Assembly: GCA_963769145.1 (NCBI GenBank)
Contig: CAVYKS010000009.1
Span: 586,919 to 650,918, forward strand
Length of the DNA: 64,000 bases
Source: an uncultured Actinomycetota bacterium
GTDB lineage: Bacteria; Actinomycetota; Actinomycetes; Streptosporangiales; Streptosporangiaceae
Direction: 5' to 3'
Shown piece after piece: positions 29,639 to 49,605 of the stretch. The notes beneath the pieces are model-generated. The model did not search any database. It had not been told where the DNA came from and saw nothing but the letters and a program-made list of their open reading frames with translations. The translations under genes were made by a program, and so were the position numbers. Every line of letters starts with the position of its first letter. Within the stretch, counting starts at the first letter, position 1.

Positions 29639-31087
29639 TGGTCGCCGCGTCCGCGCCCGCCGAGAGGTCTGCCAGCTAGGTCATCGATGCCCATGGATTC
29701 GGACTCAGCCATTATGACCAAAGATTTTTCCGCGGCGCCGACGACCCCGAGGTCGGCCCTGATGTGCAACTCAGCGGCCGTGATCAGGAGCGCGTCGACC
29801 GCGGCCGGCCCGTCGTCCCGGGCCTGGGCCAGGGCGTGCAGTTGCCTGAGCAGATGCGCTCGCTGCCGGCTGAGGACCCCAGCCAGCGTGTCCTGGTCGC
29901 CGGAGGGGCCGGCCTGGGCCTGGCGGGCGCGTCTGAATTCACCGGGCAGCATCCGGCTGGGCTCTATCTGATCGCAGTGGCCGCCGTAGCGGCAGGGGTC
30001 GTCGTGACGGCGTGCGCCGCGCTACTGCCAGCTCAGGCACTGCGACGTCTGCCGGCCGCGCATTTGCTGGCCGAGGAGTAGGCCCGGGGACAGCGCCAAG
30101 CGTCGCGGTGGGCTGGCTGAGCATGGCGTTCGCGGCTGGCTGGCAGGCGACGGACGGCGGCCGCCATCGCGACGGCGGTTGCGGTGGCTGCCGCGGCTGC
30201 GGCGATCACCGTCGTAGAAATCGGCGACAGCCAGGCCAGGCACGTTGCTACCGGACCCCGGCCGGTGGCGCACCACCCGCGACCGGTCAAGCTCACCACG
30301 GTGATGGTGCGCCGCGTCGCCCGGGCGTCCGACCTCGCCCTAGCGTCGGCCGGCCATGTGCTGGTTGCCTACGCCGATGTGGTCGGCTCGATCCCAGATG
30401 GATCGGGGACTTTGGATATTAGTTTTCCGGCCAGAATTTCAATAGCCTTTCGTGCTTGGGAGACTTTTCGTAAATGGGAGGCTGCCGCATAACTAGTGAT
30501 CTTGTTTGTCAAGAGCGGTGGCCGGGGGGCGTCCGCCGGCCGCGGGGGCGCTGAGCGCGGGGAGCTGGCGCGGGGGCTCGCCGTGGCGGCTCGCGCCGGA
30601 GGCTGCGGTGGAATGCCGAATTCATACCTCTTTTCCCAGCTGGATGTGGCAATCCATCGCGCCGGGTCGCGGGGGACCGGCAGCGGCCTTCCGCGATCAT
30701 GGCCCGGCGCGTGAACGAGTTACGCGACAGCCGCATAGAGCGGACAGCTCTCCCAGACCATGGAAACCGGGTCCCATGCGCGAGCCGTGACGATCTCGCT
30801 AAGCTCGCGTCACGGCATGATTCGCTGCTTCGTCGTCGCCGTAGTCGCGGGCAGCTTCGCTACGTTCTTTAGTTCAGGCGAGGCGAGTTGAGGCCGCCGA
30901 TGTTGAGCGAACCGGCCGCGCCCGGCCGCTGGGCGGCCTCGGCTTGGATGATGTAGGTTCGCGGATCCTTGTCGACCGCCGGCACGCCGGCGTAGTTCCG
31001 CGCCTCGAAGGCCGCGGTTCGTCAGCTGCATGCATGGCCCTCAGGACACTCCCGCTAAGTGCAGTCGGGCCCCGATAGGGTGGCGTT

Positions 31088-31666
31088 GTGGTGGGTCACT
31101 TTGAGAGCTTCTTCATCACAAGCGCGGGAGCGTCCGCTGCCATCTTGGGGTTGCTAGTAGTCGCCGTATCGGTCGTCAATGCCGATGACGCGAACCCCAC
31201 AACCCGAGAGCTGCGAACTGTGTTGGCCGGGAGCGCGTTTGTGTCCCTGGTAGACATCTTCATCGTCTCGATCGTGGCCTTGACCGGTGGCTCAGTCGTC
31301 TTCGGGCTATCGAGCCTCGCAATGGCAGCCGTCGGCCTGCTGGCGACCAGAGGGCTGATACCGAGGGCACAGCGGGCTGGGAATTTCTCCCGTAGCTCTC
31401 GAACCAGAACGCTGAATATCGCCTTCGCGTCGATTTCGGCTGGGAGCTACACACTCCAGCTCGGCCTCGCCGTAGCGCTCCTGGCGAACACCCAGAGTGC
31501 CGGGCTGCAGCATGCTTTGGTCCTCGTCCTGGTGGCTCTGTATTGCAGCGCCCTTGGTCGGGCATGGGTGGTCACCGGGATAACCCGTCGTGCGCCGGGC
31601 GACCCGGCCAAGGCTGAGCCCGTCGCCGACGCCGAGCCAGCGGCGCCGCTGGCGGCTCCGTCTTGA
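31088..31666 (+). CDS. Hypothetical 4-TM membrane protein
   Basis: 192-aa ORF (GTG start) with four clear hydrophobic helices and a Pro/Ala-rich tail. No family recognised. Confidence 0.45.
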   Translation: MVGHFESFFITSAGASAAILGLLVVAVSVVNADDANPTTRELRTVLAGSAFVSLVDIFIVSIVALTGGSVVFGLSSLAMAAVGLLATRGLIPRAQRAGNFSRSSRTRTLNIAFASISAGSYTLQLGLAVALLANTQSAGLQHALVLVLVALYCSALGRAWVVTGITRRAPGDPAKAEPVADAEPAAPLAAPS

Positions 31667-31807
31667 CCTCGCCGTTTGTCCGTAGGCCGTCAGGTCGCCG
31701 TTTCTGGTCGCGAATAGCATGTGCCCGCCTGGTTGGCTCGGGTACGATTTTTAGTGATATCCGGTATGTGTAGTGGCAGGGACGGCACCGTGAAAAGGGC
31801 AGACGAG

Positions 31808-32134
31808 ATGGGCGGAGGCCCGGCGGGCGGCGGAGGAGGGCAGATCGTGATAGCGCCCGCACGCCAGGACATCCGCCCGGGTCATGACGGCGACGTGATC
31901 TTCGAGGTCCGTGAGATTTCGGACGGCGGCCGGGCCTTGCCGGTCTTCACGACCGTCGGGCACCTGGTGGAGACGCTCGGCCCTGACCAGCCATGGGTCG
32001 CGGTGCCGCTGCGGAACATCCAGACGATCATGGGCGGCGCGGGCGTGGACAGAGTCGTGATTGACCCCGTGGCCCAGCCCGGCACGTGGCGGTGGCAGCC
32101 GAGCGACCTGCAGGCCCTGATCGGGAGGCAATAG
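31808..32134 (+). CDS. SseB/SAV_915-like small protein
   Basis: LPVFTTVGHLVETLGPDQPWVAVPLRNIQTIMGGAGVDRVVIDP resembles the SAV_915/SseB-type family as I remember it. ATG 31808 is chosen (108 aa); the longest ORF starts at 31721. Confidence 0.5.
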   Translation: MGGGPAGGGGGQIVIAPARQDIRPGHDGDVIFEVREISDGGRALPVFTTVGHLVETLGPDQPWVAVPLRNIQTIMGGAGVDRVVIDPVAQPGTWRWQPSDLQALIGRQ

Positions 32135-32136
32135 TT

Positions 32137-32466
32137 GTGTTGCTAGCAGACGGTGGCGGTGGAGGCGGATTCCAGGTCGTGATGTCGGACCTGCTCGACG
32201 CGTCGGCCACGTTCCGGACCGAGGCCGCGACGTACAAGGCGATCATGCCCGACGACGGCCCGGCGTGCCCGGATGGCGGAGACGGCGCGTTCAACCAGAG
32301 CCTTCAGGCCGTGGTCCAGATGATCGGCGCCCTGCACCTTCAGGCCTCCGGCGTGATGGACGTCGATTCCGCGAAGCTGAAGAAGGCGCACGACAACTAC
32401 GCGCACACCGAGGAGAGCCTGACCCAGCTCTGCAACCAGATCAGCTCCCCGCTCAAGATCAACTAA
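32137..32466 (+). CDS. Small helical protein, candidate type VII secretion substrate/partner
   Basis: GTG 32137 lies 8 nt after a gggagg SD (32123-32128). About 110 aa, predicted helical. The C-terminal region carries DNYAHTEE, a YxxxE motif shared with the Esx pair of this locus. Confidence 0.5.
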   Translation: MLLADGGGGGGFQVVMSDLLDASATFRTEAATYKAIMPDDGPACPDGGDGAFNQSLQAVVQMIGALHLQASGVMDVDSAKLKKAHDNYAHTEESLTQLCNQISSPLKIN

Positions 32467-32485: not shown

Positions 32486-33868
32486 GTGTCTGGTACCGCT
32501 ACCTTGCCGACGAGATCCCTCCTGCCGCTGGCGTCGTTCAGCTACAACTGGGTGGGCGGCGACATCCACGGGCTTGCTGCGTTCGCAGGCACGCTCTATG
32601 GCTACGTGCCCGAAATGGAATCCGTGGTCACCGCCCTGAACAAGAAGGTTGACCAGATCGTCACCGACGCGGGCTGGCGGGGTTCGGCGGCTCAGGCGTT
32701 CACCGGCAACTGGGAGAAGGTCTCGGCGGAGGTTAACGCCGTCGGGCTGGTAGTCATCCAGACCGGCAGCGTCGTCGACCAGCTCGCCTCGAACCTTTCC
32801 AAGATCGAGAATGCGCTAGAGAGCGCCGCTGGCAAGGCCGCGGCGCATGGCGTCCAGGTCGGCGCCGACGGGCAGCCACCCCAGGTCTGCTACAGCAACA
32901 AGACCCAGGAGGACTGGCGGGTCGGCTACGACTCGTTCTACCAGCAGTGCAAAGCCGACGCCGAGAATGCCCGGGTCGAGGCGGCGGGCGCACTGGTGAA
33001 GCTCGGCCAGGCGATCACGCCGGGCAAGCCCGGCGGCGACTCCGGCGGCACTCCGGCGAAAGTCGGCGAGGGAAACACGATCTCCGCCCTGCTGCTCGAC
33101 CTGGTGGCATCGAAGACCGCCTACGCCAACAAGGTTGCCGACATGTTGGACGAGGTCACCGCCAAACTCGGAAAGGCGCAGGGGGCCTGGGAGGCGGCGC
33201 AGAAGGCTGCCCGGCAGGCAAGTGGCCGGTTCGGCGTGATGCCCGACGATGTCAAGGCCGAGCTGGCGGACGTCAAGGGCGAAGTCGCCTCGGTGGAAAA
33301 GACCCTGACCAACGCGCAGGCCGATGAGAACGCGATCTCCAAGCTGTTCGGCACCCGCCTGGATGACCTGCCGGGTCTCGGCAAGGTCGTCGACGGGCTC
33401 CCCGCCGGGCTCAGCGACGCCAAGCTGCTCTCCAAGGCGCTCGACCTCCCCGTGGTTGACGTCGTCGCCGGCGGCATCAGCACGGTACTCAACGCTCAGC
33501 AGGACATCAGCAAAGGTGTACCGGCTTGGGCGGCCTACCCGCTCGAAACTGGAGTCACGGTAGGCAGCATCGCCCTGGCCACGGCCGCCGGCGGGGCGGT
33601 CGCCGGGCTCGCCATCTTCGCCGGCGCGCCTGTGCTCGGCGTGGCGGCGGGCGTCGCCGCGGCCGGCGTGGTCGCCTACGGCGTGGGTGACTTTGCCCAC
33701 AACTACATCGCCGACTTCGGCGAGCAGTGGAAGGAACACGGGGCGCTTGGCATCGTCACCGACTTCGGCGCCGCCGGGGTCGATACCTGGCACGACACCG
33801 AGCACCTGGCCTCCGACGTCGGTAGCCTGGCCAAGAGCGCGTGGCATGGCATCACGTCCCTGTTCTGA
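32486..33868 (+). CDS. WXG100/LXG-like N-terminal domain protein with C-terminal glycine-zipper transmembrane region (candidate T7SS effector)
   Basis: The N-terminal ~130 aa form a helical hairpin with DAGWRGSAAQAF (W-x-G). A long Ala/Lys/Glu-rich helical middle follows. The C-terminal hydrophobic stretch is GSIALATAAGGAVAGLAIFAGAPVLGVAAGVAAAGVVAYGVG. Confidence 0.6.
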   Translation: MSGTATLPTRSLLPLASFSYNWVGGDIHGLAAFAGTLYGYVPEMESVVTALNKKVDQIVTDAGWRGSAAQAFTGNWEKVSAEVNAVGLVVIQTGSVVDQLASNLSKIENALESAAGKAAAHGVQVGADGQPPQVCYSNKTQEDWRVGYDSFYQQCKADAENARVEAAGALVKLGQAITPGKPGGDSGGTPAKVGEGNTISALLLDLVASKTAYANKVADMLDEVTAKLGKAQGAWEAAQKAARQASGRFGVMPDDVKAELADVKGEVASVEKTLTNAQADENAISKLFGTRLDDLPGLGKVVDGLPAGLSDAKLLSKALDLPVVDVVAGGISTVLNAQQDISKGVPAWAAYPLETGVTVGSIALATAAGGAVAGLAIFAGAPVLGVAAGVAAAGVVAYGVGDFAHNYIADFGEQWKEHGALGIVTDFGAAGVDTWHDTEHLASDVGSLAKSAWHGITSLF

Positions 33869-33886: not shown

Positions 33887-34642
33887 ATGGGTTTGTTCGA
33901 TCGCTCCCCAAGCAAGCTGTCGGGCAAGACCACGCTGCTGCTGACCGGCGACCCGGGCGGCGCGCTCGTTGACGCGGCGCGCCTGTACGACCCCGGTGCT
34001 CGTGCCTGGCGCGGCAGGCTGGTGTTCCGCAACGGGGTGCTGCTGTTCGGGCCGGTGACGCTGACCCCCGAGCTGGAGCAGCAGGCTGAGCTGCCGACCG
34101 GGATGGCAGTCGCCTACTACGCGGAGGCGGCCCTGCAAAGGCACAGGGACCGACGCAGCCTTGAGGCGAAGCAGCGCGACTGCGACCGCCTCGTTCGTGG
34201 CCTGGCGGACCGGTTCGGCGGGACCGTCAAGTACGCCGGCGCGCCGCCGGACCTAGCTCTAATCACGTCCGTGTACAGCGAGCAGGCCGTGGCCCCTGAC
34301 CAGGTGATCGAGGTGCTGCGTCCTTACGGCGGTGACTTCAAGATCGAGGACCAGGATCAGGACACGTACAGCCTTAGCGGCAAGGGGACCTATTTCTATG
34401 TCGCCTACTGGTCCCCGCGGCTGTACCTCGAGTTTGACGCTCCGCCCGCCGTCCGCGCGACGGGCTCCCGGCCGCTGCATCACTGGGATCTGCACCCTGG
34501 CTCGGGCAGGAAGCACATCGCGCCCGAACTGGCCCGCAGGGTCGGTGAGGGGGCGCTCGCGCTCGCCGGGCGCTCTGGCGGCGTCGCGCTTGACGAGCTC
34601 AGGTTCCCCTTCACAAGCGCCGACGACCTCCTTCGACGTTAG
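33887..34642 (+). CDS. Hypothetical cytoplasmic protein (no family recognised)
   Basis: 251-aa ORF with a ggagg SD about 11-15 nt upstream. No TM segments or signal peptide. It sits between the candidate effector and mycP. Confidence 0.55.
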   Translation: MGLFDRSPSKLSGKTTLLLTGDPGGALVDAARLYDPGARAWRGRLVFRNGVLLFGPVTLTPELEQQAELPTGMAVAYYAEAALQRHRDRRSLEAKQRDCDRLVRGLADRFGGTVKYAGAPPDLALITSVYSEQAVAPDQVIEVLRPYGGDFKIEDQDQDTYSLSGKGTYFYVAYWSPRLYLEFDAPPAVRATGSRPLHHWDLHPGSGRKHIAPELARRVGEGALALAGRSGGVALDELRFPFTSADDLLRR

Positions 34643-34650
34643 CTACACGA

Positions 34651-35925
34651 ATGAGCCGGATCGGTGTAGTGGTGCTTGGCGCGGTGCTTGCCACCATGGC
34701 GGTGGCACCCGTGACATCGGCTTGGGCGACGCCTAAGCCGACGCCCAAGCCGTCGCCCAAGCCAACGGTCGTCCGGCGGAAACCGGCCCGGCCGTCCCTG
34801 CCTGTGCCGGTGGCCACTATGCCCAGGCCTACGCAGAACTGCCCGGGCCTGCCTGCGGCCTCGCGGGTCACCAGGGAGCCGTGGGCTCAGCAGGCGCTGG
34901 AGTTCAGTGACGTGTGGCCGCTGACTCGGGGCCAGGGTGTCACGGTCGCGGTGGTGGATAGCGGAGTGGACTTCAGCAGGCAGCTCACCGGCCGGGTCAC
35001 CGCCGTCGATCTCACCAAGACCGGGCTGGCCGACTGCGTAGGTCACGGCACGTCGGTGGCAGCGATCATCGCGGCCAGCGACATTCAGGCCCAGGGCATG
35101 CCATTCGAGGGCGTGGCGCCCGCCGCGCGGATCCTGTCGGTCAAGGTGTACAGCCAGAACAGCAATGCGCGCATCCTGGCCGACGGGATCCGCGACGCGG
35201 TTCTCCTTGGTGCCCAGGTCATCAACGTCTCGATCATCACGGCCAATACCCCCGGGCTCCGGTCGGCGGTGGACTTCGCGCTGCGCAAGAACGTCGTGAT
35301 AGTGGCCGCGGGAGGAAACGACGGAACCACCACAGGCACCGGCCCGTTCTATCCCGCGAGCTATCCAGGCGTGCTGTCGGTCGGCGCGGTGGACTCCAGC
35401 GGTGCGCTGGCGACGTTCTCCGATCGGAAGTCGCACGCGGCGGTGACAGCGCCCGGCGTGAACGTCACCAGCGCGTTCCCCGGCGGTTACCAGCAGGACA
35501 GCCTGACCGGGACAAGCTTCGCCACGCCATTCGTGTCAGGGGTCGTCGCGCTGGTGCGATCGCGCTACCCGTGGCTTACCGCGCGGCAGGTCGTGGCCAG
35601 GATCGTGGCCACCGCGGACGGCGGGGCAGGTCAGGGAACCGGCAACGGGCTGGTCAACCCCGTCGAGGCGGTCACCGCGATCCTCGGCAGCGGGCCCGCG
35701 CGGAACTCGTCACCGTTGGCCACGGCGCCGGTCTCGGTGTCCAGGACACCGCCGCCGGACCGGACGGCCCGCTCAGCCATCGAGGCGACTGGTGGCTCGC
35801 TCGGCGCCGCGGCCCTAGTCGCCCTCGGCGCCATGGTCTGGCGAGCGGGCCGACGGCGCCGATGGCGCGCCGGGCTGGCGCGGGACGCTGCCGATGACAG
35901 CCTCGCCGACAGCACGTGGCCTTGA
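34651..35925 (+). CDS. mycP: Type VII secretion-associated serine protease mycosin
   Basis: Signal peptide, then the subtilisin triad contexts VAVVDSGVD, GHGTSVAAIIAA and GTSFATPFVSGVVALV. The C-terminal TM anchor is AALVALGAMVWRAGRRRRW. It is embedded in the ESX locus. Confidence 0.9.
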   Translation: MSRIGVVVLGAVLATMAVAPVTSAWATPKPTPKPSPKPTVVRRKPARPSLPVPVATMPRPTQNCPGLPAASRVTREPWAQQALEFSDVWPLTRGQGVTVAVVDSGVDFSRQLTGRVTAVDLTKTGLADCVGHGTSVAAIIAASDIQAQGMPFEGVAPAARILSVKVYSQNSNARILADGIRDAVLLGAQVINVSIITANTPGLRSAVDFALRKNVVIVAAGGNDGTTTGTGPFYPASYPGVLSVGAVDSSGALATFSDRKSHAAVTAPGVNVTSAFPGGYQQDSLTGTSFATPFVSGVVALVRSRYPWLTARQVVARIVATADGGAGQGTGNGLVNPVEAVTAILGSGPARNSSPLATAPVSVSRTPPPDRTARSAIEATGGSLGAAALVALGAMVWRAGRRRRWRAGLARDAADDSLADSTWP

Positions 35926-38900
35926 CATCTCGATCGTGTGCGGTGTGCTGGACGCTGGCGGGCGTCGTCCGTCGTCGAGCAGCGCCACCTGGACCAGTCG
36001 GCTGCCCGTGCGGCGTTCGACGAAGAAGCCGCGGCCGGGCGGTTGAGCCTGTGCCTTGACGCCGCCGATCAGCGCACCCTCGTCCTTGGCCCCCGACATG
36101 ATCACCCCAGGGGAGCCCATCTCGCGGGCACGCTGGATGATCGGGTCGAACATCGCGCGCCCGGCGCCACCCGCCGACCGGGCCAGAATCAGGTGCAGTC
36201 CGATGTCTCGGGCCTGCGGGACGAGGTCGGCGATCGGGAGCAGCGGGTTGGTGGCCCCGGCCACGAGGTCGTAGTCGTCGACGATCAGGAACAGATCAGA
36301 ACCGTCCCACCAGGAGCGGCTGCGGAGCTGCTGGGGCGTCAGGTCGGGCGGCGGCAGCCGCTGGGTGAGCGCCTCGCGCACCTCGCCGATAATCGGCGCC
36401 GCGGCGGCCGAGGACGCGGCGTAGCCAAGCGTGAGCTCCGATTCCGTGCTGTCCAGCAGCGCCCGGCGGTAGTCGATGAAGATCAGCCGGGCCTGGTCGG
36501 GCGCGTACCGCTCGGTCACGCTCTCGGCGAGCAGGCGCAGCAGGTTCGACTTCCCGCACTCGGCATCGCCGAAGACCAGCAGGTGCGCGTCGGCGCCGAA
36601 GTCGAGCAGCACAGGCGACAGCGTGCTCTCGTCCACGCCGAACGCGATCTTCGTGCCGGTCTGCGCGGAGCCGGGCAGCGCGGTCACCGGGAAGGAGTCG
36701 GGCAGCAGCCGTACCCGCGGCGCGCGATCGGCGGGCCAGGCCATCGCTACCGTCTCGGCCAGCTTCTGCACTCCCTCGGCCAGGGTGTCGGGCGAGGGCT
36801 GGGAGTCGATGCGCGGCAACGCGGTCAGGAAGTGCAGGCCGTCGCGGGTGATGCCGCGGCCCGGCGAGGTCTCGGGCACGTTCGCCGCCAGCTTCCGGTC
36901 GATCTCGGATTCGTACGGGTCGCCCAGCCGCAGCTCAAGCCGGGTGCCGAACAGGTCACGGATCGCGGGGCGGAACTCCGTCCACTTGCCGGCCGACGCC
37001 ACGACGTGCACGCCGTAGCCCAGGCCTCTGGCCGCGATGGCCGTGACCTCCTGCTCGAGGTCCTCGAAATCCTGGCGCAGCGTCAGCCAGTCGTCCACAA
37101 CCAGGAACACGTCCCCGAACCCGTCGCCGGTGATCTTGCCGCTGGCGCGCATCGTCCGGTACGCGGAGATCGACTCGATGCCCTGCCCGGCAAACTCTTT
37201 CTCCCGGCGGGTGAGGACACCGCGCACCTCAGCGACCGTGCGCCGGACCTTGGTCGTGTCGAGCCGGGCGGCGACGCCGCCGACGTGCGGCAGCGCGCCC
37301 AGGCTGCCAAGCGATCCGCCGCCGAAGTCGAGGCAGTAGAACTGCGTCTCGGCCGGCGTGTGCAGCAGCGCCAGCGAGCAGATCAAGGTCCGCAGCATGG
37401 TGGACTTGCCACTGCGCGGCGCGCCGACGACCGCGGCGTGACCGGCAGCGGCGGAAAGGTCGACCCACAGCGGGTCACGGCGCTGCTCGAATGGCCGGTC
37501 GACGATCCCGGTGACCGCGCGCAACCCGCCCCGCAATTGCGAGTTGGGCACCGTGCACCCGTGCTGCTGGGTGATCATCAGCGAGGGAAGTAGCTCGCCC
37601 AGCGTGGGCGGCTGGCCAAGCGGCGGCAGCCAGATCTGGTGCGCGTCCGGCCCGTGCCCGGCGAGCTGCCCGACCACGATGTCGAGCAGGGTTTCCGCCC
37701 GGCCAGCCAGGCCCGCCTGGTCGGCCTGAACGGGCTCCTGGCCGTCCGGTGCCATCTCCGGCCGGATGTAGCCGGGACCGAACGGCACGATGGCCGGGCG
37801 CATCCGGGTCCGTTGGGTCCTGGCTGGCTCCGCAACGGCCGACCCCGAGACGTAGGCGGCCTTGAACCTGGTCATATCGTCGGTGCCGAACTTCAGGTAC
37901 CCGCTGCCCGGCTGCGGCGGCAGCTCGTAGGCGTCGGGCACGCCGAGGACTACGCGCGACTCCATGGCAGAAAACGTGCGCAGGCCGATCCGGTAGGACA
38001 GGTGCGTGTCGAGGCCGCGTAGCTTGCCTTCCTCAAGACGCTGCGAGGCGAGCAGCAGGTGCACGCCGAGTGACCGGCCAAGCCGCCCGATCATCACGAA
38101 CAGGTCGATGAAGTCCGGCCGGACGGACAGCAGCTCGGAGAACTCGTCGATGACCACGAACAAGGTGGGCACGGATGGCAGGTCGGCCCCTTGCTCGCGG
38201 GCCCTGGCGTAGTCACGAAGCGAGGCGTTGCCCGCCGCCCGCAGCAGCTCCTGTCTGCGAACCAGTTCGCCGTTCAGCGCGTCGCGCATCCGGTCGACCA
38301 ACGGAAGCTCGTCCGCCAGGTTCGTGATCACGGCGGATACGTGGGTCAGCCGTTCAAGCCCGAGGAATGTGGCGCCGCCCTTGAAATCCACGAGAACGAA
38401 GTTGAGCGCATCGGAGGGGTGCGTCAGGGCCAGGCTCAGAACCAGCGTCCGCAGCAGCTCGGACTTGCCGGACCCGGTCGCGCCGATGACAAGGCCGTGC
38501 GGGCCCATGCCGCCCTGCGCAGCCTCCTTGATATCCAGCTCGACCGGCTGACCTTCGGCGTTGGTGCCGATCGGCACTCGCAGTCGGCCGCGCGGCGGCC
38601 GCGGCTGCCACAGGACCCCCAGATTGAGCGCGAACGGGCTGGCGATCCCGAGCAGCGACGTCAGCGTGGTGTCGGCCGCTAGCGGGTCGTCGGCCGCGCC
38701 GCTGCCGGGCCGCAGCGGCGCGAGCTGCCTGGCGAACGCCTCGGCTTCGGCAAGCGACATCGAGTCAGGTACGCCGATGGGCGAGCGCACCTCGGCACCG
38801 GTCCGGTCCCTGGTGATCATCTCGGTAACGCCCGAGGTGACGCTCAGGCGGAGAGCGGGGGCGGTCAGGGTCGACGGCACGGCGAGTGAGCCCTGGGTCA

Positions 38901-39933
38901 GATCGATGACAACGGCACCCTCGATACCGTCGGTGCCCAGGCGGGACTCCGCCACCTGGTAGCCGCCGTCGACGAGGACCACATGAAGGGGGAGAGCGCC
39001 CGACCGGCCGGGCGTAAATGGCGGCCGGGCGGCCAGCTCGGCGCCGATCAGTGCCTCAAGCTGTAGCAGGCCGAGCGCCATCAGGCGAACCGGTCCCGCC
39101 GCGTCGGCCTCGACCGGGTGCATGTTGTGCGGCAGCCACTTGATCCATTGCCACCACCCCATCCGATCCGGCGAGACGCACACGCTGATGTGCACGTCGT
39201 CCGGGGAATGGAAGATCGCAAGCTGCGCGATCATCGCCCGGACCATGCCGTAGACCGCCTCGGGCTCGCCGCTTACCGCGATCCGGGCGAACGCGCGCAG
39301 CGAGATCCCGATCGGCAGGTCGGAAACGCTGTTGTGGGCTCTGATGAACCGCCGCAGAGCTCCCGCGCAGAGCGGATCAAGATCCTCGACCGGCTTGGTT
39401 TCCGGCGACACGAGCTTGACCGCCAGCTGGTGCGTGCCGGTGCCGATCCGGACTTTGGCGAAGTCCTCGCCAGACGAGCGCCGCTCCCAGACCCGCCGTA
39501 GCTCGGGATCGATCAGCAGCGCGACAAGCGCACCCGGGTCGGGGCTGACCCACTCAAGCGCCTCCCGCTGGGCCGCGGCGGCCGCGCGTACCTTGCGCCG
39601 CACTTGGCCCAGGTAACGCAGGTAGTCCCGGCGCAGGCCGTTGAGCTTCAGGTTCCGCTCGCCGCGGCCGCGCCCCATCTGGGTGAGCATCATGCCGCCC
39701 ATGCCCAGGGCCATCGCGCCGCCGCCCACATAGAGGATCTTGTTCGAGCTGTTCCCGGCGAACATCGAGCCCATCCCGACCATCATCGCGATCATCGGAA
39801 GGTACATCAGCGTCTGCCGGAAGCTGTCGGGCGCGGCCTCGGGGATCTCCGGCGGGGACTCGAGCAGGATCTCACCGCTGGGAAGCTCCGGCGGATCGTG
39901 CCGCTCGGTCCGGCGGACGACGACGGTGCTCAC
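35815..39933 (-). CDS. eccC: Type VII secretion protein EccC (FtsK/SpoIIIE-family, three P-loop domains, fused EccCa/EccCb)
   Basis: 1372 aa. Two N-terminal TM helices, then three Walker A sites: GATGSGKSELLRTL, GAPRSGKSTMLRTL and GDAECGKSNLLRLL. Confidence 0.95.
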   Translation of the reverse strand: MSTVVVRRTERHDPPELPSGEILLESPPEIPEAAPDSFRQTLMYLPMIAMMVGMGSMFAGNSSNKILYVGGGAMALGMGGMMLTQMGRGRGERNLKLNGLRRDYLRYLGQVRRKVRAAAAAQREALEWVSPDPGALVALLIDPELRRVWERRSSGEDFAKVRIGTGTHQLAVKLVSPETKPVEDLDPLCAGALRRFIRAHNSVSDLPIGISLRAFARIAVSGEPEAVYGMVRAMIAQLAIFHSPDDVHISVCVSPDRMGWWQWIKWLPHNMHPVEADAAGPVRLMALGLLQLEALIGAELAARPPFTPGRSGALPLHVVLVDGGYQVAESRLGTDGIEGAVVIDLTQGSLAVPSTLTAPALRLSVTSGVTEMITRDRTGAEVRSPIGVPDSMSLAEAEAFARQLAPLRPGSGAADDPLAADTTLTSLLGIASPFALNLGVLWQPRPPRGRLRVPIGTNAEGQPVELDIKEAAQGGMGPHGLVIGATGSGKSELLRTLVLSLALTHPSDALNFVLVDFKGGATFLGLERLTHVSAVITNLADELPLVDRMRDALNGELVRRQELLRAAGNASLRDYARAREQGADLPSVPTLFVVIDEFSELLSVRPDFIDLFVMIGRLGRSLGVHLLLASQRLEEGKLRGLDTHLSYRIGLRTFSAMESRVVLGVPDAYELPPQPGSGYLKFGTDDMTRFKAAYVSGSAVAEPARTQRTRMRPAIVPFGPGYIRPEMAPDGQEPVQADQAGLAGRAETLLDIVVGQLAGHGPDAHQIWLPPLGQPPTLGELLPSLMITQQHGCTVPNSQLRGGLRAVTGIVDRPFEQRRDPLWVDLSAAAGHAAVVGAPRSGKSTMLRTLICSLALLHTPAETQFYCLDFGGGSLGSLGALPHVGGVAARLDTTKVRRTVAEVRGVLTRREKEFAGQGIESISAYRTMRASGKITGDGFGDVFLVVDDWLTLRQDFEDLEQEVTAIAARGLGYGVHVVASAGKWTEFRPAIRDLFGTRLELRLGDPYESEIDRKLAANVPETSPGRGITRDGLHFLTALPRIDSQPSPDTLAEGVQKLAETVAMAWPADRAPRVRLLPDSFPVTALPGSAQTGTKIAFGVDESTLSPVLLDFGADAHLLVFGDAECGKSNLLRLLAESVTERYAPDQARLIFIDYRRALLDSTESELTLGYAASSAAAAPIIGEVREALTQRLPPPDLTPQQLRSRSWWDGSDLFLIVDDYDLVAGATNPLLPIADLVPQARDIGLHLILARSAGGAGRAMFDPIIQRAREMGSPGVIMSGAKDEGALIGGVKAQAQPPGRGFFVERRTGSRLVQVALLDDGRRPPASSTPHTIEMSRPRAVGEAVIGSVPRQPGAPSAPSARSPDHGAEGD

Positions 39934-40081
39934 GGCCCGGCCTTCCTTTCCGCCGCTCTGGGCACGCGCAGCGCGATTCGGCCGGCTGGCCCTACGCTGA
40001 GTGTTAATATTTTACGGCTGTATTTCCGGACTGGCGGGCACAACGGATGTGTACAGGCGCCCGATCCGTGGAAGGGGTCAA

Positions 40082-41473
40082 ATGGCGTCGGCAGCCGGAT
40101 CGGACCTGTGCCGGGTGACCGTCGTCGGTCCATCCCGGCGGATTGACATCGCTTTCCCAGGCTATGTGACGTTCGCTGATCTGTTTCCCACGGTGGCTAA
40201 GCATGCGGGCCTCAGCGGACCCGACGTGGTGGGGGAGCAGGGCGGCTGGGTGTTGCAGCGCCTCGGCGAGGAGCCGTTCGCTCCGGCGATGACCCCGCAG
40301 CAGGCTGGCCTCCGCGACGGCGAGACGATCTATCTGCGGCCGCGCCGCGCCCAGATACCGCGGATGGCCTTCGACGACGTGGCCGACGTGATCGCGAGCG
40401 GACTGAGCGATCTGCCTGGCCGGTGGGCAGTTCGCCAGGCCCGCTGGGTGGCGCTGGGCGCGGCCCTGGCGGCGCTTGCCGCTGGAGCGGTGTTCATACT
40501 CCGCTCGGGACCGCCAGGGCCGGTTCCGGGGGTGGCGGCCGCGGCGGTCGCGGTCACGCTGCTACTCGCGGTCCTGTCGGTATCGAGAGCCGCGGGTGAC
40601 TCGCGGGCCGGGGCGACGCTAGGTTACGCGGCGCTTCCCTACGCGTTCCTGGCCGGGCTGCTCGGGCCAGCGCGAGCGGTACCGCTCGCGCATCTCGGCG
40701 CCGTGCACATGCTGTCGGCGTTCGCGGCCGTGGCGCTGACCGCGGTGGTGGCCGCCGTGGCGTCGGCCGAGCTGTGGCTGTACTTCGGCGTCGTGGTCGC
40801 GTCGCTGCTCGCCGTCCTCGGCGCCTGGGTCGGGTATATGTTCGGCGTCGGCTTCGCCGCGGCGGCGGCCGTGGTCGCGGTTCTCGCCCTGGCCCTCACC
40901 CCGCTGATTCCCGCGGTGTCGTTCTGGCTGGCGCGGATGGCGCTTCCCCAGGTGCCGCGGCACGCCGACGACCTGAGGCAGGACACGCTTACCATCGATG
41001 GGTCCGAGGTGTTCGGCCGGACGGCCTCGGCCGACCAGTTCGTGACCGCCGCCGTGTCTGGCATCGGCCTGGTGGGGGCGGCAGCGGCGGTAGCGCTGGC
41101 CTTCACCCGGAGCTGGCTTGGCCTGGGTACCTGCGCCGTGCTTGCCTGCACGCTGCTGCTACGCGCCCGGCTTTTCCGCGGCCTGAGTCAGCGGCTATGG
41201 CTGCTGGTCCCCGGCTTCGGCGGCCTGGCGCTGCTCGCGATCGGCGAGGTCCACGGGTCCTCCCAGGCACAGCATCTGGCGCTCGCTCTTGGGCCGCTGG
41301 TCGCCGGCGTGGCCGTGGTCGTCGGCGTCGGCATGTGGCTGCCGAGTCACCGGCCCTCGCCGTTCTGGGGCCGGGTAGCCGACATCGCCGACACCGCGCT
41401 CAACATCGGCCTGATCCCGCTCGCCCTCGGCGTCGCCGGGGTCTTCGGCCAGGTCCGCGGCCTGGGCGGTTGA
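40082..41473 (+). CDS. eccD: Type VII secretion integral membrane protein EccD
   Basis: The N-terminal ubiquitin-like segment LCRVTVVGPSRRIDIAFPGYVTFADLFPTV is followed by about 11 TM helices. ATG 40082 is chosen; it is divergent from eccC. Confidence 0.85.
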   Translation: MASAAGSDLCRVTVVGPSRRIDIAFPGYVTFADLFPTVAKHAGLSGPDVVGEQGGWVLQRLGEEPFAPAMTPQQAGLRDGETIYLRPRRAQIPRMAFDDVADVIASGLSDLPGRWAVRQARWVALGAALAALAAGAVFILRSGPPGPVPGVAAAAVAVTLLLAVLSVSRAAGDSRAGATLGYAALPYAFLAGLLGPARAVPLAHLGAVHMLSAFAAVALTAVVAAVASAELWLYFGVVVASLLAVLGAWVGYMFGVGFAAAAAVVAVLALALTPLIPAVSFWLARMALPQVPRHADDLRQDTLTIDGSEVFGRTASADQFVTAAVSGIGLVGAAAAVALAFTRSWLGLGTCAVLACTLLLRARLFRGLSQRLWLLVPGFGGLALLAIGEVHGSSQAQHLALALGPLVAGVAVVVGVGMWLPSHRPSPFWGRVADIADTALNIGLIPLALGVAGVFGQVRGLGG

Positions 41474-41477
41474 CACC

Positions 41478-42860
41478 ATGACTATGCAGAGCCGCAGGGA
41501 TCTGTTCCGGGCCCACCGGCTGATGACTCAGCGGGCGTCGCTAGCGCTGCTGCGCGGCGAGCCCGATATCCCTGACCAGCCGTTGCGCCGCCTGAATGTA
41601 GCGGTGTTCTCCGGTGTGCTTGTCGGTGCGATCGTCATCGGGCTGTTCTTCATCTGGGGCCTGATCGGACACGGCGGTTCGCCGCTGCAGAACCAGCCGG
41701 GCACGCTGGTCATCGACAAGCAGACCGGTACGTCGTTTGTCTTCTGCCGGGGTGACGAGCTCTGCCCGGCGGTGAACTACGCGTCGGCCCGGCTAGCGCT
41801 GAACAGCACGTCGCTGAACCAGCAGACAGTGAGCCAGTCGGCGCTCGCGAAGTTCGCCCGCGGGCCGCTTATCGGCATTCCTGGGCTGCCCGAGCCGTTG
41901 CCCGACAGCAAGCTGCTGATCCGCCAGCCCTGGTCTGTGTGCACCGCTCAGACGACAACTCCCGTAGCAGGCAAGCAGACCGTTACCGTTTTGGCTGTCG
42001 GCATCCCCGTCACCGGTCAACCGCTGGGGAGTGGCGCGCTGGTGGCCAGGGCGCTTGGCCAGGACTGGGTGATCTGGAATGGCCAGCGCCTGGCGATACA
42101 AGCGGGCTTGCTCCCGGCGCTGCTGCGCGTCGGCCAGTCGGTCGTGGCGGTGCCGTCGGTCTGGCTCAATGCGCTGCCCCAGGGACCGGCGTTCGCGCCG
42201 CCGAAGATAGCGCACCGGGGCGCGAAGGTGGCCGGCCCGACCGGCGCGCTCGTGGCTGTCGGGCAGGTCTTCAGCGTGACCGCGGTGGCCGGCACGCAGT
42301 ACTACGTGATGCTCAAGGGCGGCCTGGCTCAGATCACGCAGACCCAGGCGCAACTCTTGGGCTTCGAGCCGGGCGCGCCGGCCCGGGCCACGCTGAGCCC
42401 GCCTGAGGTCGACGGCCATCTCTCGGCGGTCAGGGTACCGGGCGGCGGGTTGCCGAGCAGCGTCCCCGCCGTCACGGCGCCCGCTCCAACCGTCCCGCTC
42501 TGCGTGGTGTACTCCGGCGCGGGCCGAAACCTGACCAGGCAGGTCGAGGCCGGAGGGCAGATGCCGCCCGGCGGAGTGCCGACCGGTGCACCGGGCGGCG
42601 TGGGCCGGGTGACGCTCCCGCCAGGTTCCGGTGCGCTGGTCGGGGCCGATCCCGGGACCGGCCCTGACCCCGGCGTGATCAGCTACTTCCTGGTGGCGGA
42701 CGGCCGCAGGTTCGCCCTCGCGTCGACCAGGGTGGCCGGTATGCTCGGCTACGGCCTCTCGCAGGCCGTGCTCTTGCCCGCGGGCGTCGTTGACCTGATC
42801 CCATCTGGCCCCGCGCTCGACCCGGCAAGGGCAGCCAGACCGGTACCGTCCGGCCGGTAA
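41478..42860 (+). CDS. eccB: Type VII secretion protein EccB
   Basis: N-terminus QSRRDLFRAHRLMTQRASLALLRGEPD, one TM helix, then a large extracytoplasmic domain. It starts 4 nt after the eccD stop. Confidence 0.85.
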   Translation: MTMQSRRDLFRAHRLMTQRASLALLRGEPDIPDQPLRRLNVAVFSGVLVGAIVIGLFFIWGLIGHGGSPLQNQPGTLVIDKQTGTSFVFCRGDELCPAVNYASARLALNSTSLNQQTVSQSALAKFARGPLIGIPGLPEPLPDSKLLIRQPWSVCTAQTTTPVAGKQTVTVLAVGIPVTGQPLGSGALVARALGQDWVIWNGQRLAIQAGLLPALLRVGQSVVAVPSVWLNALPQGPAFAPPKIAHRGAKVAGPTGALVAVGQVFSVTAVAGTQYYVMLKGGLAQITQTQAQLLGFEPGAPARATLSPPEVDGHLSAVRVPGGGLPSSVPAVTAPAPTVPLCVVYSGAGRNLTRQVEAGGQMPPGGVPTGAPGGVGRVTLPPGSGALVGADPGTGPDPGVISYFLVADGRRFALASTRVAGMLGYGLSQAVLLPAGVVDLIPSGPALDPARAARPVPSGR

Positions 42861-42991
42861 TGGGCGTCGGTATTTGCGGCGCACCTAACCGGTCATAACA
42901 CCCAACAGCGGCCGAAGATCAAGAGGCGACCATAAATAGCCCGAACGTTTCGCGTATCGAATTGATAACAGCGCGTAGTTCCCCGTCCGGG

Positions 42992-43020
42992 TTGACGCAA
43001 ATCCTAGTTTTAGCCAAAAT
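42992..43020 (+). promoter_or_regulatory. Candidate sigma70-type promoter upstream of the esx pair (TTGACG-17 nt-CAAAAT)
   Basis: Read directly in the AT-richer 220-nt eccB-esxB intergenic region. This is a pattern match only, and the -10 element is weak. Confidence 0.25.
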
Positions 43021-43081
43021 TGGTCATGTTCCGTGGCGGGAGAGTTTCCTGGTCCTGCCCAGAGTTCACGGGAGGTGTGGG

Positions 43082-43396
43082 ATGGCTGGACAGGTAACCG
43101 TAAACAGAGCGGCGATGGTGACCGCTGCCCAGCAGGTCGAGAGCGCGCTCGGAGAGATCCGCGCTCAGCAGACCCGGCTGGTCGGCACCCACGACACGCT
43201 GCAGGGTGGCTGGCAGGGCGAAGCGTCCACGGCGTTCACCAATGCCTTCAACGAGTTCAACAGCGACTTCGCCATCGTGATCAGCGCGCTCGACGGGATC
43301 CACTCCCGGCTCGTCAGCGGCCACGCCAACTACAACACCGTTGAGTCGGCCAACACGACGACGGCGGGCAAGATCGCAAGCGCACTGAACCGGTAG
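43082..43396 (+). CDS. esxB: WXG100-family protein, EsxB/CFP-10-like
   Basis: 104 aa. W-x-G at GGWQGEA (about residues 44-46). The C-terminal YNTVE (residues 84-88) fits the YxxxD/E export motif. A gggagg SD is upstream. Confidence 0.85.
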   Translation: MAGQVTVNRAAMVTAAQQVESALGEIRAQQTRLVGTHDTLQGGWQGEASTAFTNAFNEFNSDFAIVISALDGIHSRLVSGHANYNTVESANTTTAGKIASALNR

Positions 43397-43416: not shown

Positions 43417-43707
43417 ATGAGCGAATACACCGCCGTACATTTCGGCGCGATGCAGACCGCGGAGGCTGACTTCGGCTCGACCTACCAGGCGCTGCAGAAC
43501 ACTCTGACCACGCTGGAGTCCCAGCTCCAGTCCAGCCTGAACCAGTGGACCGGTGAGGCTCAGACAGCGTATTACGCGGCTAAGAAGAAGTGGGACGCCG
43601 CTGCGGCCGACATGGCTCACGTGGTGTCCGCGCTCGGCCAGGTTGTCGGCGTCGCCAACGAGAATTACGCGAACGCCGAGCGGACCAACATGGCGATGTG
43701 GGAGTAA
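43417..43707 (+). CDS. esxA: WXG100-family protein, EsxA/ESAT-6-like
   Basis: 96 aa. W-x-G at NQWTGEA (44-46), YANAE at 84-88, and an aaggag SD. Confidence 0.9.
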   Translation: MSEYTAVHFGAMQTAEADFGSTYQALQNTLTTLESQLQSSLNQWTGEAQTAYYAAKKKWDAAAADMAHVVSALGQVVGVANENYANAERTNMAMWE

Positions 43708-43719
43708 CGCGGGTTCACG

Positions 43720-44229
43720 ATGGGCGCGATTGGCGATCACATGGCGCTTTCGGATCAGGAAAAACTCGATCAGCAGACACCAGCGGGCAGCGGGCAGGGC
43801 GGGTACAACTCGGACGGGTCGGGAAAGGTCAACGACTTCAAGCCGTCGGGGTTGCCCACGTCGAACTGGCCCCCTGGTCTGAAAGCTGACGGACAGTTCA
43901 GCGTGCACAGGGACGCACTGACTCGGGTGGCCGGTCAGATGAATGCCGACCTGACCGAGTTGCAGAACACGCTGAGCACGCTGAACGGCGGCGGGGCCGG
44001 TGGCGCGACGCTCGGTGGCTGGGAAACCGCGGACGGGATGGGAAATAATGCCGGCCAGGCCTACTACGGGATCTCTACGTTCTACCAGTCACTCAACGAC
44101 GTCTACGACCAGGTGATCGGTTACCTGCACCAGACGGTTACCAACTACGCCGACGCCGAGACCACCACGGCGACCGCGGCGAACAACGTGGGCACCGACG
44201 TCGCGCCGGGCCGCCCGAACGGCGGCTGA
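43720..44229 (+). CDS. Hypothetical WXG-like protein, candidate T7SS substrate
   Basis: 169 aa. A helical core carries LGGWETADG (W-x-x) and TNYADAE (YxxxE). It lies immediately downstream of the esx pair. Confidence 0.55.
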   Translation: MGAIGDHMALSDQEKLDQQTPAGSGQGGYNSDGSGKVNDFKPSGLPTSNWPPGLKADGQFSVHRDALTRVAGQMNADLTELQNTLSTLNGGGAGGATLGGWETADGMGNNAGQAYYGISTFYQSLNDVYDQVIGYLHQTVTNYADAETTTATAANNVGTDVAPGRPNGG

Positions 44230-48712: not shown

Positions 48713-49605
48713 GAGGACTCGAATCGGTATTCGGCCAGCCGGGGACGGTAGGCGAGCTGCGCTAGCACGGCAGCCAGCAGGAACAGGAGCAGTGCACACG
48801 TCAGCGTGGCGGGATGCCCGGCCCACGGATCGCCGGACAGATGCCGCTCGTCGCTCCAGTTGAAGACTCCCACGGCTACCGCGGTCGCCGCGGTCACCAG
48901 CAGAGAACCCCACAGCCACCGGCTGACGTGACGCCGGAAGTAGCGCGTCAGCACGTGAGCCGTCGCCATGGAGAGCAGGACCATGGCGACCACCGGCCCG
49001 AGCAGCGCCCACCAGAACGCTCCGGGATCGAGCGGCCACGCGCGATCCTGTACGCCAAGCGCGTTCTGCTCGGTCCCCTTCAGCGCGCGGAGCGCTGTGA
49101 CGAGATCCCCGTTGCTGCTCGACGCGTAGCCCTCGGCGGCCTCGCCGAGCTGCGGTCCTCCCGCGGCTTGGCCGTAGTCTCTAACCGCGTTCTCGCTGAG
49201 CAACAGGTAGGTCTGGAGCTGGGCTTGGACGTACTGGATACTGCTCGTCCCCTCCTTGCCAGCGCCGTTGTCCTCGGCAGCGAGGGTGAGGTCCTTGCTC
49301 ACCTCGTCGATGTAGTCGACGTAGTCTGATCCGGTGCCGGTCAGCGTGACGTCCTCTGTGGTGAACACGGTCACAAGCGCCGTGTCGGCGTTCATCGCGG
49401 CTATTACCGCGCTCCCGATATCCGTAACAGCCGACTGGGTCCGGCCCGCGGCGCCGATGTCATTGCCCGCCTGAGTCGCGACCCATAGGTACAGCAACGC
49501 GGCGGCGAGCACGCACAGCAGCACGCCGTTCCTGAGCCACCTCAGCACGCTGGCTGGATGAGCGGCACGGAGCCGGCGGTACCGGTCGGCCGCATTGACG
49601 GTCAT
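48709..49605 (-). CDS. 4-TM membrane protein with ~170-aa extracytoplasmic helical loop (GlnX-like topology)
   Basis: TM1 is GVLLCVLAAALLYLWVA, followed by a long polar helical segment and then three more TM helices. ATG 49605 overlaps the vWA gene stop as ATGA. The topology analogy to GlnX is inference. Confidence 0.6.
   Translation of the reverse strand: MTVNAADRYRRLRAAHPASVLRWLRNGVLLCVLAAALLYLWVATQAGNDIGAAGRTQSAVTDIGSAVIAAMNADTALVTVFTTEDVTLTGTGSDYVDYIDEVSKDLTLAAEDNGAGKEGTSSIQYVQAQLQTYLLLSENAVRDYGQAAGGPQLGEAAEGYASSSNGDLVTALRALKGTEQNALGVQDRAWPLDPGAFWWALLGPVVAMVLLSMATAHVLTRYFRRHVSRWLWGSLLVTAATAVAVGVFNWSDERHLSGDPWAGHPATLTCALLLFLLAAVLAQLAYRPRLAEYRFESS

Follow-up and report, generated by a model that had tools for sequence, protein, structure and literature searches.

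A 64,000-nucleotide stretch of an uncultured Actinomycetota bacterium (contig CAVYKS010000009.1 of assembly GCA_963769145.1, positions 586,919 to 650,918; hereafter the window) carries, in a four-gene cassette beside an ESX locus, a gene for a 460-residue protein that joins a WXG100-type head to a C-terminal glycine-zipper hairpin. We cautiously favor the reading that this protein (the target) is the large subunit of a two-protein substrate exported by an actinomycete type VII secretion system (T7SSa), and that its hairpin would insert into a bilayer from outside and form a depolarizing assembly. The narrower proposal, that the target and its small partner are exported as a pair of T7SS (type VII secretion system) substrates, is very probable, judging from motifs and gene linkage. 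Most likely, the family began as an interbacterial toxin that depolarizes membranes, corresponding on the T7SSa side to TspA, TelE, and EsxX. The parts of the target on which this proposal depends are as follows.

32486..33868, plus strand: putative T7SSa effector gene (the target), GTG start, 460 aa, with a WXG head and a glycine-zipper tail.
32486..33016, plus strand: head domain, residues 1 to 177, with a W22-V-G-G-D-I motif, a WXG hairpin (helices 27 to 61 and 67 to 120), and a third helix (139 to 177).
32675..32683, plus strand: WxG motif W64-R-G66, with W64 and G66 invariant in 120 homologues.
33017..33445, plus strand: helical stalk, residues 178 to 320, the most variable part, with predicted helices at 196 to 241 and 254 to 279.
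33446..33865, plus strand: putative C-terminal membrane domain, residues 321 to 460, holding an amphipathic helix, the hairpin, and a tail rich in His and acidic residues.
33554..33688, plus strand: hydrophobic hairpin, residues 357 to 401, with predicted transmembrane (TM) segments TM1 (357 to 380) and TM2 (383 to 401) and a turn at A381-P382.

The target is a real, conserved gene. Its open reading frame (ORF) exists exactly as it was originally predicted, a GAAGGA Shine-Dalgarno sequence lies 7 nt before the GTG, and both the GC content at third codon positions (GC3) and the number of homologues support this conclusion. GC3 is 0.87, the level usual for real genes in this window of about 68% GC. 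A database clustered at 90% holds 228 homologues, and among 1.84 billion cluster representatives, a profile matched only 325 at E≤1e-3, which makes the family a small one. The best 120 of the 228 homologues are almost all full length (443 to 472 aa), are 55 to 100% identical to the target, and come from soil Streptosporangiaceae/Trebonia-like metagenome-assembled genomes (MAGs); where they bear a name, it is "YukE" or "WXG100 family type VII secretion target." Of the full-length representatives, nearly all can be aligned over their whole length and have a hydrophobic segment at the same position, and distant members extend to cultured Streptomyces (e.g., WP_361433176.1).

The C-terminal domain, which has no sequence match in Pfam or the PDB, contains the feature on which the membrane proposal depends. 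Residues 357 to 401 are the only stretch of the target with a Kyte-Doolittle mean of at least 1.6, and A381-P382 divides them into two segments of TM length that are together 31% Ala, 23% Gly, and 19% Val. TM2 holds a strict (G/A/S)xxxGxxxG zipper, A381-G385-G389, under the definition (G/A/S)xxxGxxxG or GxxxGxxx(G/S/T) taken from PMC12744356. In the family consensus the zipper continues to G393, a position that Ala occupies in the window copy, and across the family the hairpin averages 0.93 GxxxGxxxG motifs per sequence. The original prediction described a pair of hydrophobic helices rich in small-xxx-small repeats, and residues 357 to 401 bear out that description locally; zipper-type motifs are not significantly enriched over the whole protein (11, versus 6.8 ± 2.5 in shuffled sequences). 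The zipper signal is thus local and rests on position-specific conservation, because the whole-protein count is not significantly above that of the shuffles.

That conservation is pronounced. P382, A388, G399, V400, G401, and D402 are invariant in a 48-sequence alignment and are kept in 119 to 120 of the 120 sequences of a larger set; H405, D437, D444, and W453 of the tail are likewise invariant, and the conservation of hairpin and tail reaches relatives of only 29 to 40% identity. These observations bear on the simplest alternative, namely, that a WXG100-family protein has by coincidence acquired a low-complexity, Ala/Gly-rich C terminus without membrane function. High-GC genomes yield Ala/Gly-rich sequences, the whole-protein zipper counts are not significantly above those of shuffles, and AlphaFold2 is of low confidence in the C-terminal half, all of which would suit coincidence. 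Yet the invariance of individual hairpin and tail residues at such distances, the rank of the C-terminal region as the most conserved part of the protein, and its occurrence as an independent module in Streptomyces leave this explanation with next to no credibility.

The charges around the hairpin suggest a direction of entry. The cytoplasmic flanks of proteins inserted by Sec/YidC are expected to be positive (the positive-inside rule). In the target family, the N-terminal flank averages 0.5 Lys plus Arg versus 2.3 Asp plus Glu, and the C-terminal flank averages 0.5 versus 3.4; the 59-residue tail averages 1.7 Lys plus Arg, 7.7 Asp plus Glu, and 4.7 His. Acidic flanks on both sides run contrary to the rule and fit entry from the outer face after export. 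On these sequence features, the C-terminal hairpin probably inserts into a membrane, and it would do so from outside, after export.

The N-terminal part of the target points to the secretion system. The Pfam WXG100 model (PF06013) covers residues 29 to 108 (E=2.5e-8, 34.5 bits versus a gathering cutoff of 27.3), while the stricter NCBIfam model TIGR03930 scores 31 bits, under its cutoff of 44.85. At 460 aa versus about 100 for a canonical WXG100 protein, the target is a WXG-headed multidomain protein. The head had been read as a WXG100/LXG-type hairpin; the WXG100 half of this description is upheld, but the LXG half is not, as neither Pfam nor NCBIfam gave an LXG (PF04740) match at E≤0.1. EspA_EspE (PF18879) stays below threshold (E=0.015, 16.2 bits versus a cutoff of 27) and covers residues 47 to 108 only. 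The head contains DAGWRGSAAQAF, in which W64, G66, A68, A69, and F72 are invariant across alignments of 48 to 120 homologues.

AlphaFold2, run on the 48-sequence alignment, predicts the head to be confidently helical, with pLDDT (predicted local distance difference test) scores of 80 to 95 over residues 91 to 160. Foldseek found no structural homologue of the target in the PDB at E≤0.001, and phmmer and hmmsearch found no relatives there by sequence or profile. The best, weak fold matches of the head are PPE15 and PPE41 (E of 0.36 to 1.3), both of them T7SSa substrates whose small partner is a PE protein. Helices are also predicted at residues 139 to 177, 196 to 241, and 254 to 279, of which the last two form a second hairpin. 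The middle had been described as Ala/Lys/Glu-rich and helical; the helices are borne out by the model, and the composition is only roughly right (over residues 139 to 320, 16.5% Ala, 11% Gly, 10% Leu, 9% Lys, 9% Asp, and 5.5% Glu). Measured against the window copy, identity averages 0.58 in the stalk, 0.75 in the head, and 0.77 in the C-terminal domain.

One further block of the head deserves mention. The motif F18..W22-V-G-G-D-I-x-G-L30 (32537-32575, target residues 18 to 30) lies before helix 1 and is the most conserved block of the family; in the homologue alignment, conservation peaks over residues 21 to 40. It is kept in the Streptomyces relatives and in an alternative-tail variant at locus L003, and either the SAV_915-like protein described below or EccC may dock there.

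The target does not stand alone. It is the third gene of a cassette in the order SAV_915/SseB-like gene, DUF6317 gene, target, and gene for a 251-aa alpha/beta protein (here U251), and the gaps between successive genes and on to mycP are 2, 19, 18, and 8 nt, with Shine-Dalgarno sites. A scan of 29.6 to 36.2 kb for promoters and terminators gave site numbers not above chance.

31721..32134, plus strand: SAV_915/SseB-N-like small cytosolic protein, 137 aa as listed, the first cassette gene.
32137..32466, plus strand: DUF6317 small helical partner, 109 aa (PF19840, E=1e-16 in Pfam).
32398..32412, plus strand: YxxxD/E-type T7SSa export motif Y88-A-H-T-E92 of DUF6317, near the end of helix 2.
33887..34642, plus strand: U251, soluble alpha/beta protein, 251 aa, the fourth cassette gene.

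DUF6317 is the putative small partner. Its likely start is the GTG at 32137, after GGGAGG (the earliest possible ORF start is 32086), its gene adjoins the target gene in every locus examined, and it has no WXG motif. The Tyr of its export motif and the Glu or Asp four residues on are invariant across an alignment of all recovered loci. YxxxE/D also occurs in the DUF6317 proteins of L041, L043, and the second pair of L003; the Streptomyces copies read YAHD instead. In known T7SSa pairs, YxxxD/E lies on EsxB, PE35, EspC, and EspF, and WxG lies on EsxA, PPE68, EspA, and EspE; such pairs each have a dedicated chaperone, which is EspG, EspD, or EspH (PMC6107294). The WxG of the target and the YxxxE/D of DUF6317 would therefore make up a composite T7SSa export signal of the PE/PPE or EsxAB type, and the two proteins are likely to form a heterodimer. 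A search aimed at distant pairs of DUF6317 and cargo returned only relatives of at least 58% identity.

The other two cassette proteins are candidate cytosolic helpers. The first matches SAV_915_dom in NCBIfam (NF042914, E=3.2e-18, 65 bits versus a cutoff of 40) and SseB in Pfam (PF07179, E=1.2e-6); its gene precedes that of DUF6317 in nearly all of 38 related loci and in Streptomyces, and the protein is a candidate secretion chaperone or adaptor. The second, U251, has 237 homologues, about one for each member of the target family, and its gene directly follows the target in most loci (it is convergent in L041). Its AlphaFold2 model is confident (pLDDT of 89, predicted template modeling score of 0.87), with two alpha/beta lobes in each of which a long helix packs against a sheet. 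Foldseek gave no significant PDB fold match for U251, the best at the domain level being the peptide-binding C-domain of ZipA (E of about 4e-3), and a PDB profile search returned nothing meaningful.

Several identities for U251 were considered and rejected. An EspG-like chaperone found no support, as no EspG is among the 50 Foldseek matches listed, nor is any GyrI-like, ExiAB, or YbaB-like fold among them. Assignment to DUF5085/ExiAB or any other Pfam family failed for want of a match even at E≤10, split halves included. An internal duplication was also dismissed (hhalign probability of 0.4%, with only a 9-residue echo). By analogy, U251 is a candidate for shielding the hydrophobic hairpin in the cytoplasm, as a chaperone or a neutralizer. 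The analogues are ExiAB, which holds the glycine zipper of EsxX in a hydrophobic groove before export (PMC12744356), and the DUF4176 chaperones (PMC12478183).

The evidence for export of the target is its genomic linkage to mycP, eccC, eccD, and eccB, which with two esx-like genes form the ESX locus of the window.

34651..35925, plus strand: mycosin MycP, a subtilisin-like protease (TIGR03921, 276 bits; Peptidase_S8, E=1.4e-44), starting 8 nt after the cassette.
35815..39933, minus strand: EccC, an FtsK/SpoIIIE ATPase (FtsK_SpoIIIE, E=1.3e-90 in Pfam, with three matched stretches).
40001..41473, plus strand: EccD (EccD, E=1.4e-86, and YukD, E=1.2e-19, in Pfam).
41478..42860, plus strand: EccB (T7SS_ESX1_EccB, E=4.6e-78 in Pfam).
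43033-43396, plus strand, inside ORF 42962-43396: EsxB-like WXG100 protein of about 100 aa (WXG100, E=4.8e-14 in Pfam).
43417-43707, plus strand: EsxA-like WXG100 protein of about 100 aa (WXG100, E=6.8e-12 in Pfam).

The original prediction saw a T7SS substrate here, and its outward features agree: a WXG head, a YxxxE/D partner, linkage to mycP and eccC/D/B, a conserved zipper hairpin, and acidic flanks. Related loci, recovered by a pattern scan with one genome per species and compared by tblastn and gene clustering, number 38, all from MAGs, and show how the cassette relates to the secretion machinery. Its gene order is the same in essentially all of them, but only some 15 (about 40%) have Ecc genes at a distance of 10 kb or less. 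The cassette occupies at least five genomic settings, including either end of ESX loci; others, among genes that look by eye like core housekeeping ones, are polA-rpsA-coaE / cassette / uvrB and a position beside infB-rbfA-truB. Some genomes carry two cassettes (that of L003, and BP_381 with L015 and L034). Because Ecc genes are nearby in so few loci, the cassette is not a core part of ESX; it is a self-contained module that moves between settings. A distant cassette at L041 (1037-4400 and 11173-14940), with SseB, DUF6317, effector, and a convergent 251-aa homologue, sits amid NACHT, LRR, and CHAT-TPR genes, a setting that resembles a defense island.

These settings also bear on whether the target is a nonsecreted ESX accessory, with its hairpin anchored in the producer's membrane and its WXG head docked in the cytoplasm on EccC or regulating it. 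The target does lie upstream of mycP and in the same orientation in the window, and the family is conserved and nonpolymorphic in the window lineage. However, an accessory fits poorly with a cassette found near Ecc genes in about 15 of 38 loci and otherwise at both ESX ends or in unrelated core regions, sometimes twice in a genome. Acidic hairpin flanks oppose Sec/YidC insertion with cytoplasmic flanks, the YxxxE partner and the chaperone-like gene are features of substrates, and an orphan C-terminal fragment and tail swapping (described below) make no sense for a machine part. We regard such an anchored component, which had been offered as the alternative to a toxin, as very unlikely. Nor do the loci show the homologues to be invariant core parts of every related ESX locus, the finding that was to count against a toxin: in about 60% of the loci, the cassette is more than 10 kb from any Ecc gene.

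The strongest pointers to a toxin come from relatives. First, in a distant subfamily (37 to 44% identity), a polytopic membrane protein of 166 to 192 aa is encoded between the effector and the 251-aa gene. It belongs to a family of about 165 to 190 aa with four TM segments (4-TM) and the N-terminal motif LP..G..WY.RRG..YW.RR, without a Pfam entry, seen also at L039 2273-3652 of Streptomyces sp. NPDC020719. In Streptomyces as in the distant subfamily, the 4-TM gene comes directly after that of the effector, and it likely represents an immunity family.

Second, strain NPDC020719 has an expanded array in the order SAV_915-like gene, DUF6317 gene, effector, 4-TM gene, orphan C-terminal ORF (g111), and second 4-TM gene (g165); the array as a whole adjoins EccE and EccB. 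The orphan ORF encodes the C-terminal hairpin and tail alone, 65% identical to those of the main effector, and the second 4-TM protein is 46% identical to the first. In another Streptomyces strain, the locus is the same except that the orphan is absent. The effectors of the two strains are 94% identical over residues 1 to 300 (100% over the first 120) and 58% identical in the C-terminal domain. Taken together, these features of the relatives are, on sequence, hallmarks of polymorphic toxin-immunity loci.

Alternative tails occur elsewhere too. L003 7204-8650, on the minus strand, holds a divergent second DUF6317-effector pair with the same head, a shorter stalk, and another glycine-zipper tail, GGGIGAVVGAGVGFFASG, which matches P0168. 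Among the homologues, alternative C termini that seem real are limited to P0130, P0141, P0168, P0187, and P0210, of which P0168 clearly has a Gly-rich, hydrophobic tail. P0153, P0193, and P0264 were set aside as frameshift-type artifacts, and so was P0136 as a chimera that takes in the 251-aa gene.

From these motifs, their conservation and synteny, and the polymorphism of relatives, we infer a sequence of heterodimer formation, chaperoning, export, insertion, and depolarization. In the cytoplasm, the WXG head of the target and the DUF6317 hairpin would form a bundle like that of PE/PPE or LXG/Lap pairs, displaying the WxG and YxxxE signal. The SAV_915/SseB-like protein and U251 would be dedicated cytosolic chaperones or neutralizers, with U251 most likely covering the hairpin, and the adjacent EccB/C/D-MycP machine would export the complex. 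Outside the cell, hairpin 357 to 401 would insert into a bilayer from the outer face and oligomerize via its small-xxx-small/GxxxG face, giving an ion-conducting assembly and loss of membrane potential.

Several observations weigh against this proposal, above all for the window's own copy. The all-helical model of the C-terminal half is of low confidence (mean pLDDT of 58, and pLDDT under 50 in that half). Among 386 close pairs of the window subfamily, identity is 0.88 in the head, 0.79 in the stalk, and 0.90 in the C-terminal domain, which is thus the most conserved region and falls more than 15 points below the head in only 0.3% of pairs. A 4-TM hidden Markov model found no match in the 64-kb window or within 10 kb on either side of 21 loci of the window subfamily (L001 to L021). 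The orphan-module evidence consists of one Streptomyces locus and one strain pair. U251 has no detectable relation to ExiAB/DUF5085, EspG, or a known chaperone, and core-chromosome settings such as coaE/cassette/uvrB suit a housekeeping function better than an accessory weapon. Moreover, an orphan C-terminal domain occurs in none of the 38 related loci. The polymorphic toxin behavior that the original prediction asked for is thus present in the Streptomyces branch, and in part at L003, and is absent from the window subfamily. The genome BP_381 carries both subfamilies.

These observations keep a different kind of substrate under consideration, one that is exported with DUF6317 and has its hairpin in the producer's own membrane or envelope, with competitors not targeted. 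Such a domesticated or physiological substrate could be, for example, an EspA/EspE-like surface or membrane-active factor, a conduit for other substrates, or a protein with a developmental or lysis function. Strong purifying selection on the C-terminal domain in the window subfamily, the lack of an immunity-like membrane gene nearby, a 251-aa gene kept about 1:1 with the target and not seen as orphan arrays, and the core-chromosome positions all agree with domestication. So does the weak EspA_EspE match (E=0.015), and EspA/C/D and EspE/F/H share the logic of a WxG protein, a YxxxD/E partner, and a soluble chaperone (PMC6107294). Nevertheless, the close architectural relatives have a downstream polytopic protein, an orphan C-terminal domain, and diversified tails; the EspA_EspE match is under threshold and confined to the WXG region, which is generic; the fold of the 251-aa protein is not YbaB-like; and a zipper hairpin lodged in the membrane of its own producer should do harm if no partner is there. 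We consider domestication possible, though improbable.

A historical variant would reconcile the two branches, in that the window subfamily may descend from a toxin that lost its immunity partner and ceased to diversify, keeping DUF6317, the SAV_915-like protein, and the new-fold 251-aa binder for a physiological role in its own membrane. This course is doubtful, more so than domestication taken broadly; if true, it would be a toxin-to-housekeeping transition within an ESX system, yielding, for example, a channel that depends on the T7SS or a function in development or in the envelope. Returning to the toxin proposal, the immunity gene may lie elsewhere, the 251-aa protein may be sufficient, or the branch may have been domesticated. 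A toxin role of the window copy is plausible but unproven, and by its sequence we judge that this copy acts as an antibacterial toxin with slightly less than even confidence.

Other features surround the cassette. On its upstream side, 29640-31666 comprises about 1.45 kb in which no ORF has the codon bias of a gene and, after it, a 192-aa ORF (31088-31666) with 4 to 5 TM segments and a GC3 of 0.74; Rfam gave nothing credible for the gap at 29.6 to 31.7 kb. This ORF was considered as the immunity gene and rejected, given its atypical GC3 and its conservation in none of the 38 related loci, the latter marking the upstream edge of the cassette as a variable region. On the downstream side, the 3' ends of mycP (plus strand) and eccC (minus strand) overlap convergently by 111 nt (35815-35925).

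Beyond esxA, 44251-45627 (plus strand) encodes a second long WXG-headed protein of 458 aa (WXG100, E=8.6e-7) with a Gly/Pro-rich low-complexity tail of about 300 aa. Homologues of about 640 aa directly follow esxA in several related loci, and this protein is probably another ESX substrate; it was rejected as a paralogue of the target, the BLASTP match being limited to the WXG motif region (E of 0.057). Between it and esxA, a 169-aa ORF (43720-44229, plus strand; subthreshold WXG100 at E=0.013) may encode its small partner. At the edge of the ESX locus, 45709-46950 (minus strand) encodes 413 aa with a signal-peptide-like N terminus and no family match; it was rejected as EccE, having a signal peptide, and no EccE was detected in the 64-kb window, although the Streptomyces relatives have one. 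A few kilobases past the locus, 49602-51059 (minus strand) encodes a protein with a VWA domain and, at its C terminus, a double zinc ribbon.

To our knowledge, membrane-depolarizing glycine-zipper toxins have so far come only from the T7SSb of Bacillota. If the proposal is true, the membrane-targeting class of payloads reaches the ESX systems of non-Mycobacteriales soil actinomycetes, namely, Streptosporangiales-like MAGs and some Streptomyces. The cassette would also bring three uncharacterized accessory families, DUF6317 as a YxxxE export partner, the SAV_915/SseB-like protein, and the 251-aa protein without a structural match, to which relatives add the 4-TM immunity-like protein as a fourth; for DUF6317 and SAV_915, it offers a testable function. 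Moreover, the two branches, one diversifying and linked to immunity, the other conserved and immunity-less, make a natural comparison. The cassette logic is that of known systems, and its importance is moderate.

The closest functional models are the T7SSb glycine-zipper depolarizing toxins of Bacillota, TspA and EsxX of Staphylococcus aureus and TelE of Streptococcus gallolyticus, with LXG heads (PMC12744356, PMC7456083, PMC10434224). EsxX combines Lap partners bearing FxxxD, an LXG head, a glycine-zipper tail, soluble alpha/beta ExiAB that attaches to the zipper inside the cytoplasm, and ExiCD as polytopic immunity proteins (PMC12744356). Like these toxins, the target has a helical N-terminal targeting domain, a small helical partner with an (F/Y)xxxD/E export motif, a helical middle, and a putative C-terminal glycine-zipper domain for membrane insertion. 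Their systems encode downstream soluble alpha/beta neutralizers (ExiAB and TipE), polytopic immunity proteins (TsaI and ExiCD), or both, and the cassette likewise has a soluble alpha/beta gene; tail diversification and orphan modules are shared only by the Streptomyces relatives. Unlike them, the target is linked to an actinomycete T7SSa machine (EccB/C/D and MycP) and has a WXG100 head, not an LXG one, in keeping with a 2023 review that reported no LXG proteins associated with T7SSa (PMC10765036). In place of Lap pairs or DUF4176, it has a single DUF6317 partner together with a SAV_915/SseB-like protein. U251 lacks a sequence or fold relation to DUF5085, the toxin domain lacks sequence similarity, and the window copy has neither an adjacent membrane immunity gene nor tail polymorphism.

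Among T7SSa systems, antibacterial toxins were first shown in 2026, when Benedict et al. (Nat Commun, June 2026) described EatA, an ESX-4-dependent mycobacterial cell wall hydrolase with Tap partners and an immunity protein (PMC13444075). Eat/Tap/immunity loci are predicted to be diverse and widespread across Actinomycetota, 47% of payloads have unknown function, and the immunity proteins carry TM helices when the target is extracytoplasmic (PMC13444075). The original prediction's remark that such effectors were not characterized for actinobacterial ESX loci is therefore outdated. A T7SSa toxin as a kind is already known, and the glycine-zipper payload with DUF6317 is not in the main text of that paper, which, by whole-word search, mentions neither glycine zippers, Streptomyces, nor DUF6317. 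Like the EatA/TapA1/TapA2/EatI locus, the cassette pairs an actinobacterial T7SSa with an elongated helical N-terminal carrier and a small upstream Lap/Tap-like gene; DUF6317 is likened to TapA1 and TapA2 by description, not by sequence or fold. Eat loci have one or two such upstream genes, a variable payload, and a downstream immunity gene, whereas the downstream gene in the window encodes the soluble 251-aa protein. In EatA the payload, a GH183 arabinanase, acts on the cell wall of mycobacteria, and in the target it is a glycine-zipper membrane hairpin. Unlike in Eat loci, the host lies outside Mycobacteriales and is Streptosporangiales-like and presumably monoderm, and the SAV_915-like and 251-aa genes are additional.

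Finally, the EspA/EspC/EspD, EspE/EspF/EspH, and PE/PPE/EspG modules share with the cassette a long WxG protein with a C-terminal extension, a YxxxD/E partner of about 100 aa, and a soluble chaperone encoded alongside, which is dedicated in the ESX-1 Esp modules and a candidate here. Like espACD, the module can lie away from an esx locus (PMC6107294), and PPE proteins give the best, albeit weak, fold matches of the target head. Unlike in the Esp modules, the only sequence link is the subthreshold EspA_EspE match over the generic WXG region, and the chaperone candidates are not YbaB-like and have no EspG-like fold match. The conserved glycine-zipper hairpin and, in relatives, the polytopic partner with an orphan C-terminal domain are features not described for Esp proteins.

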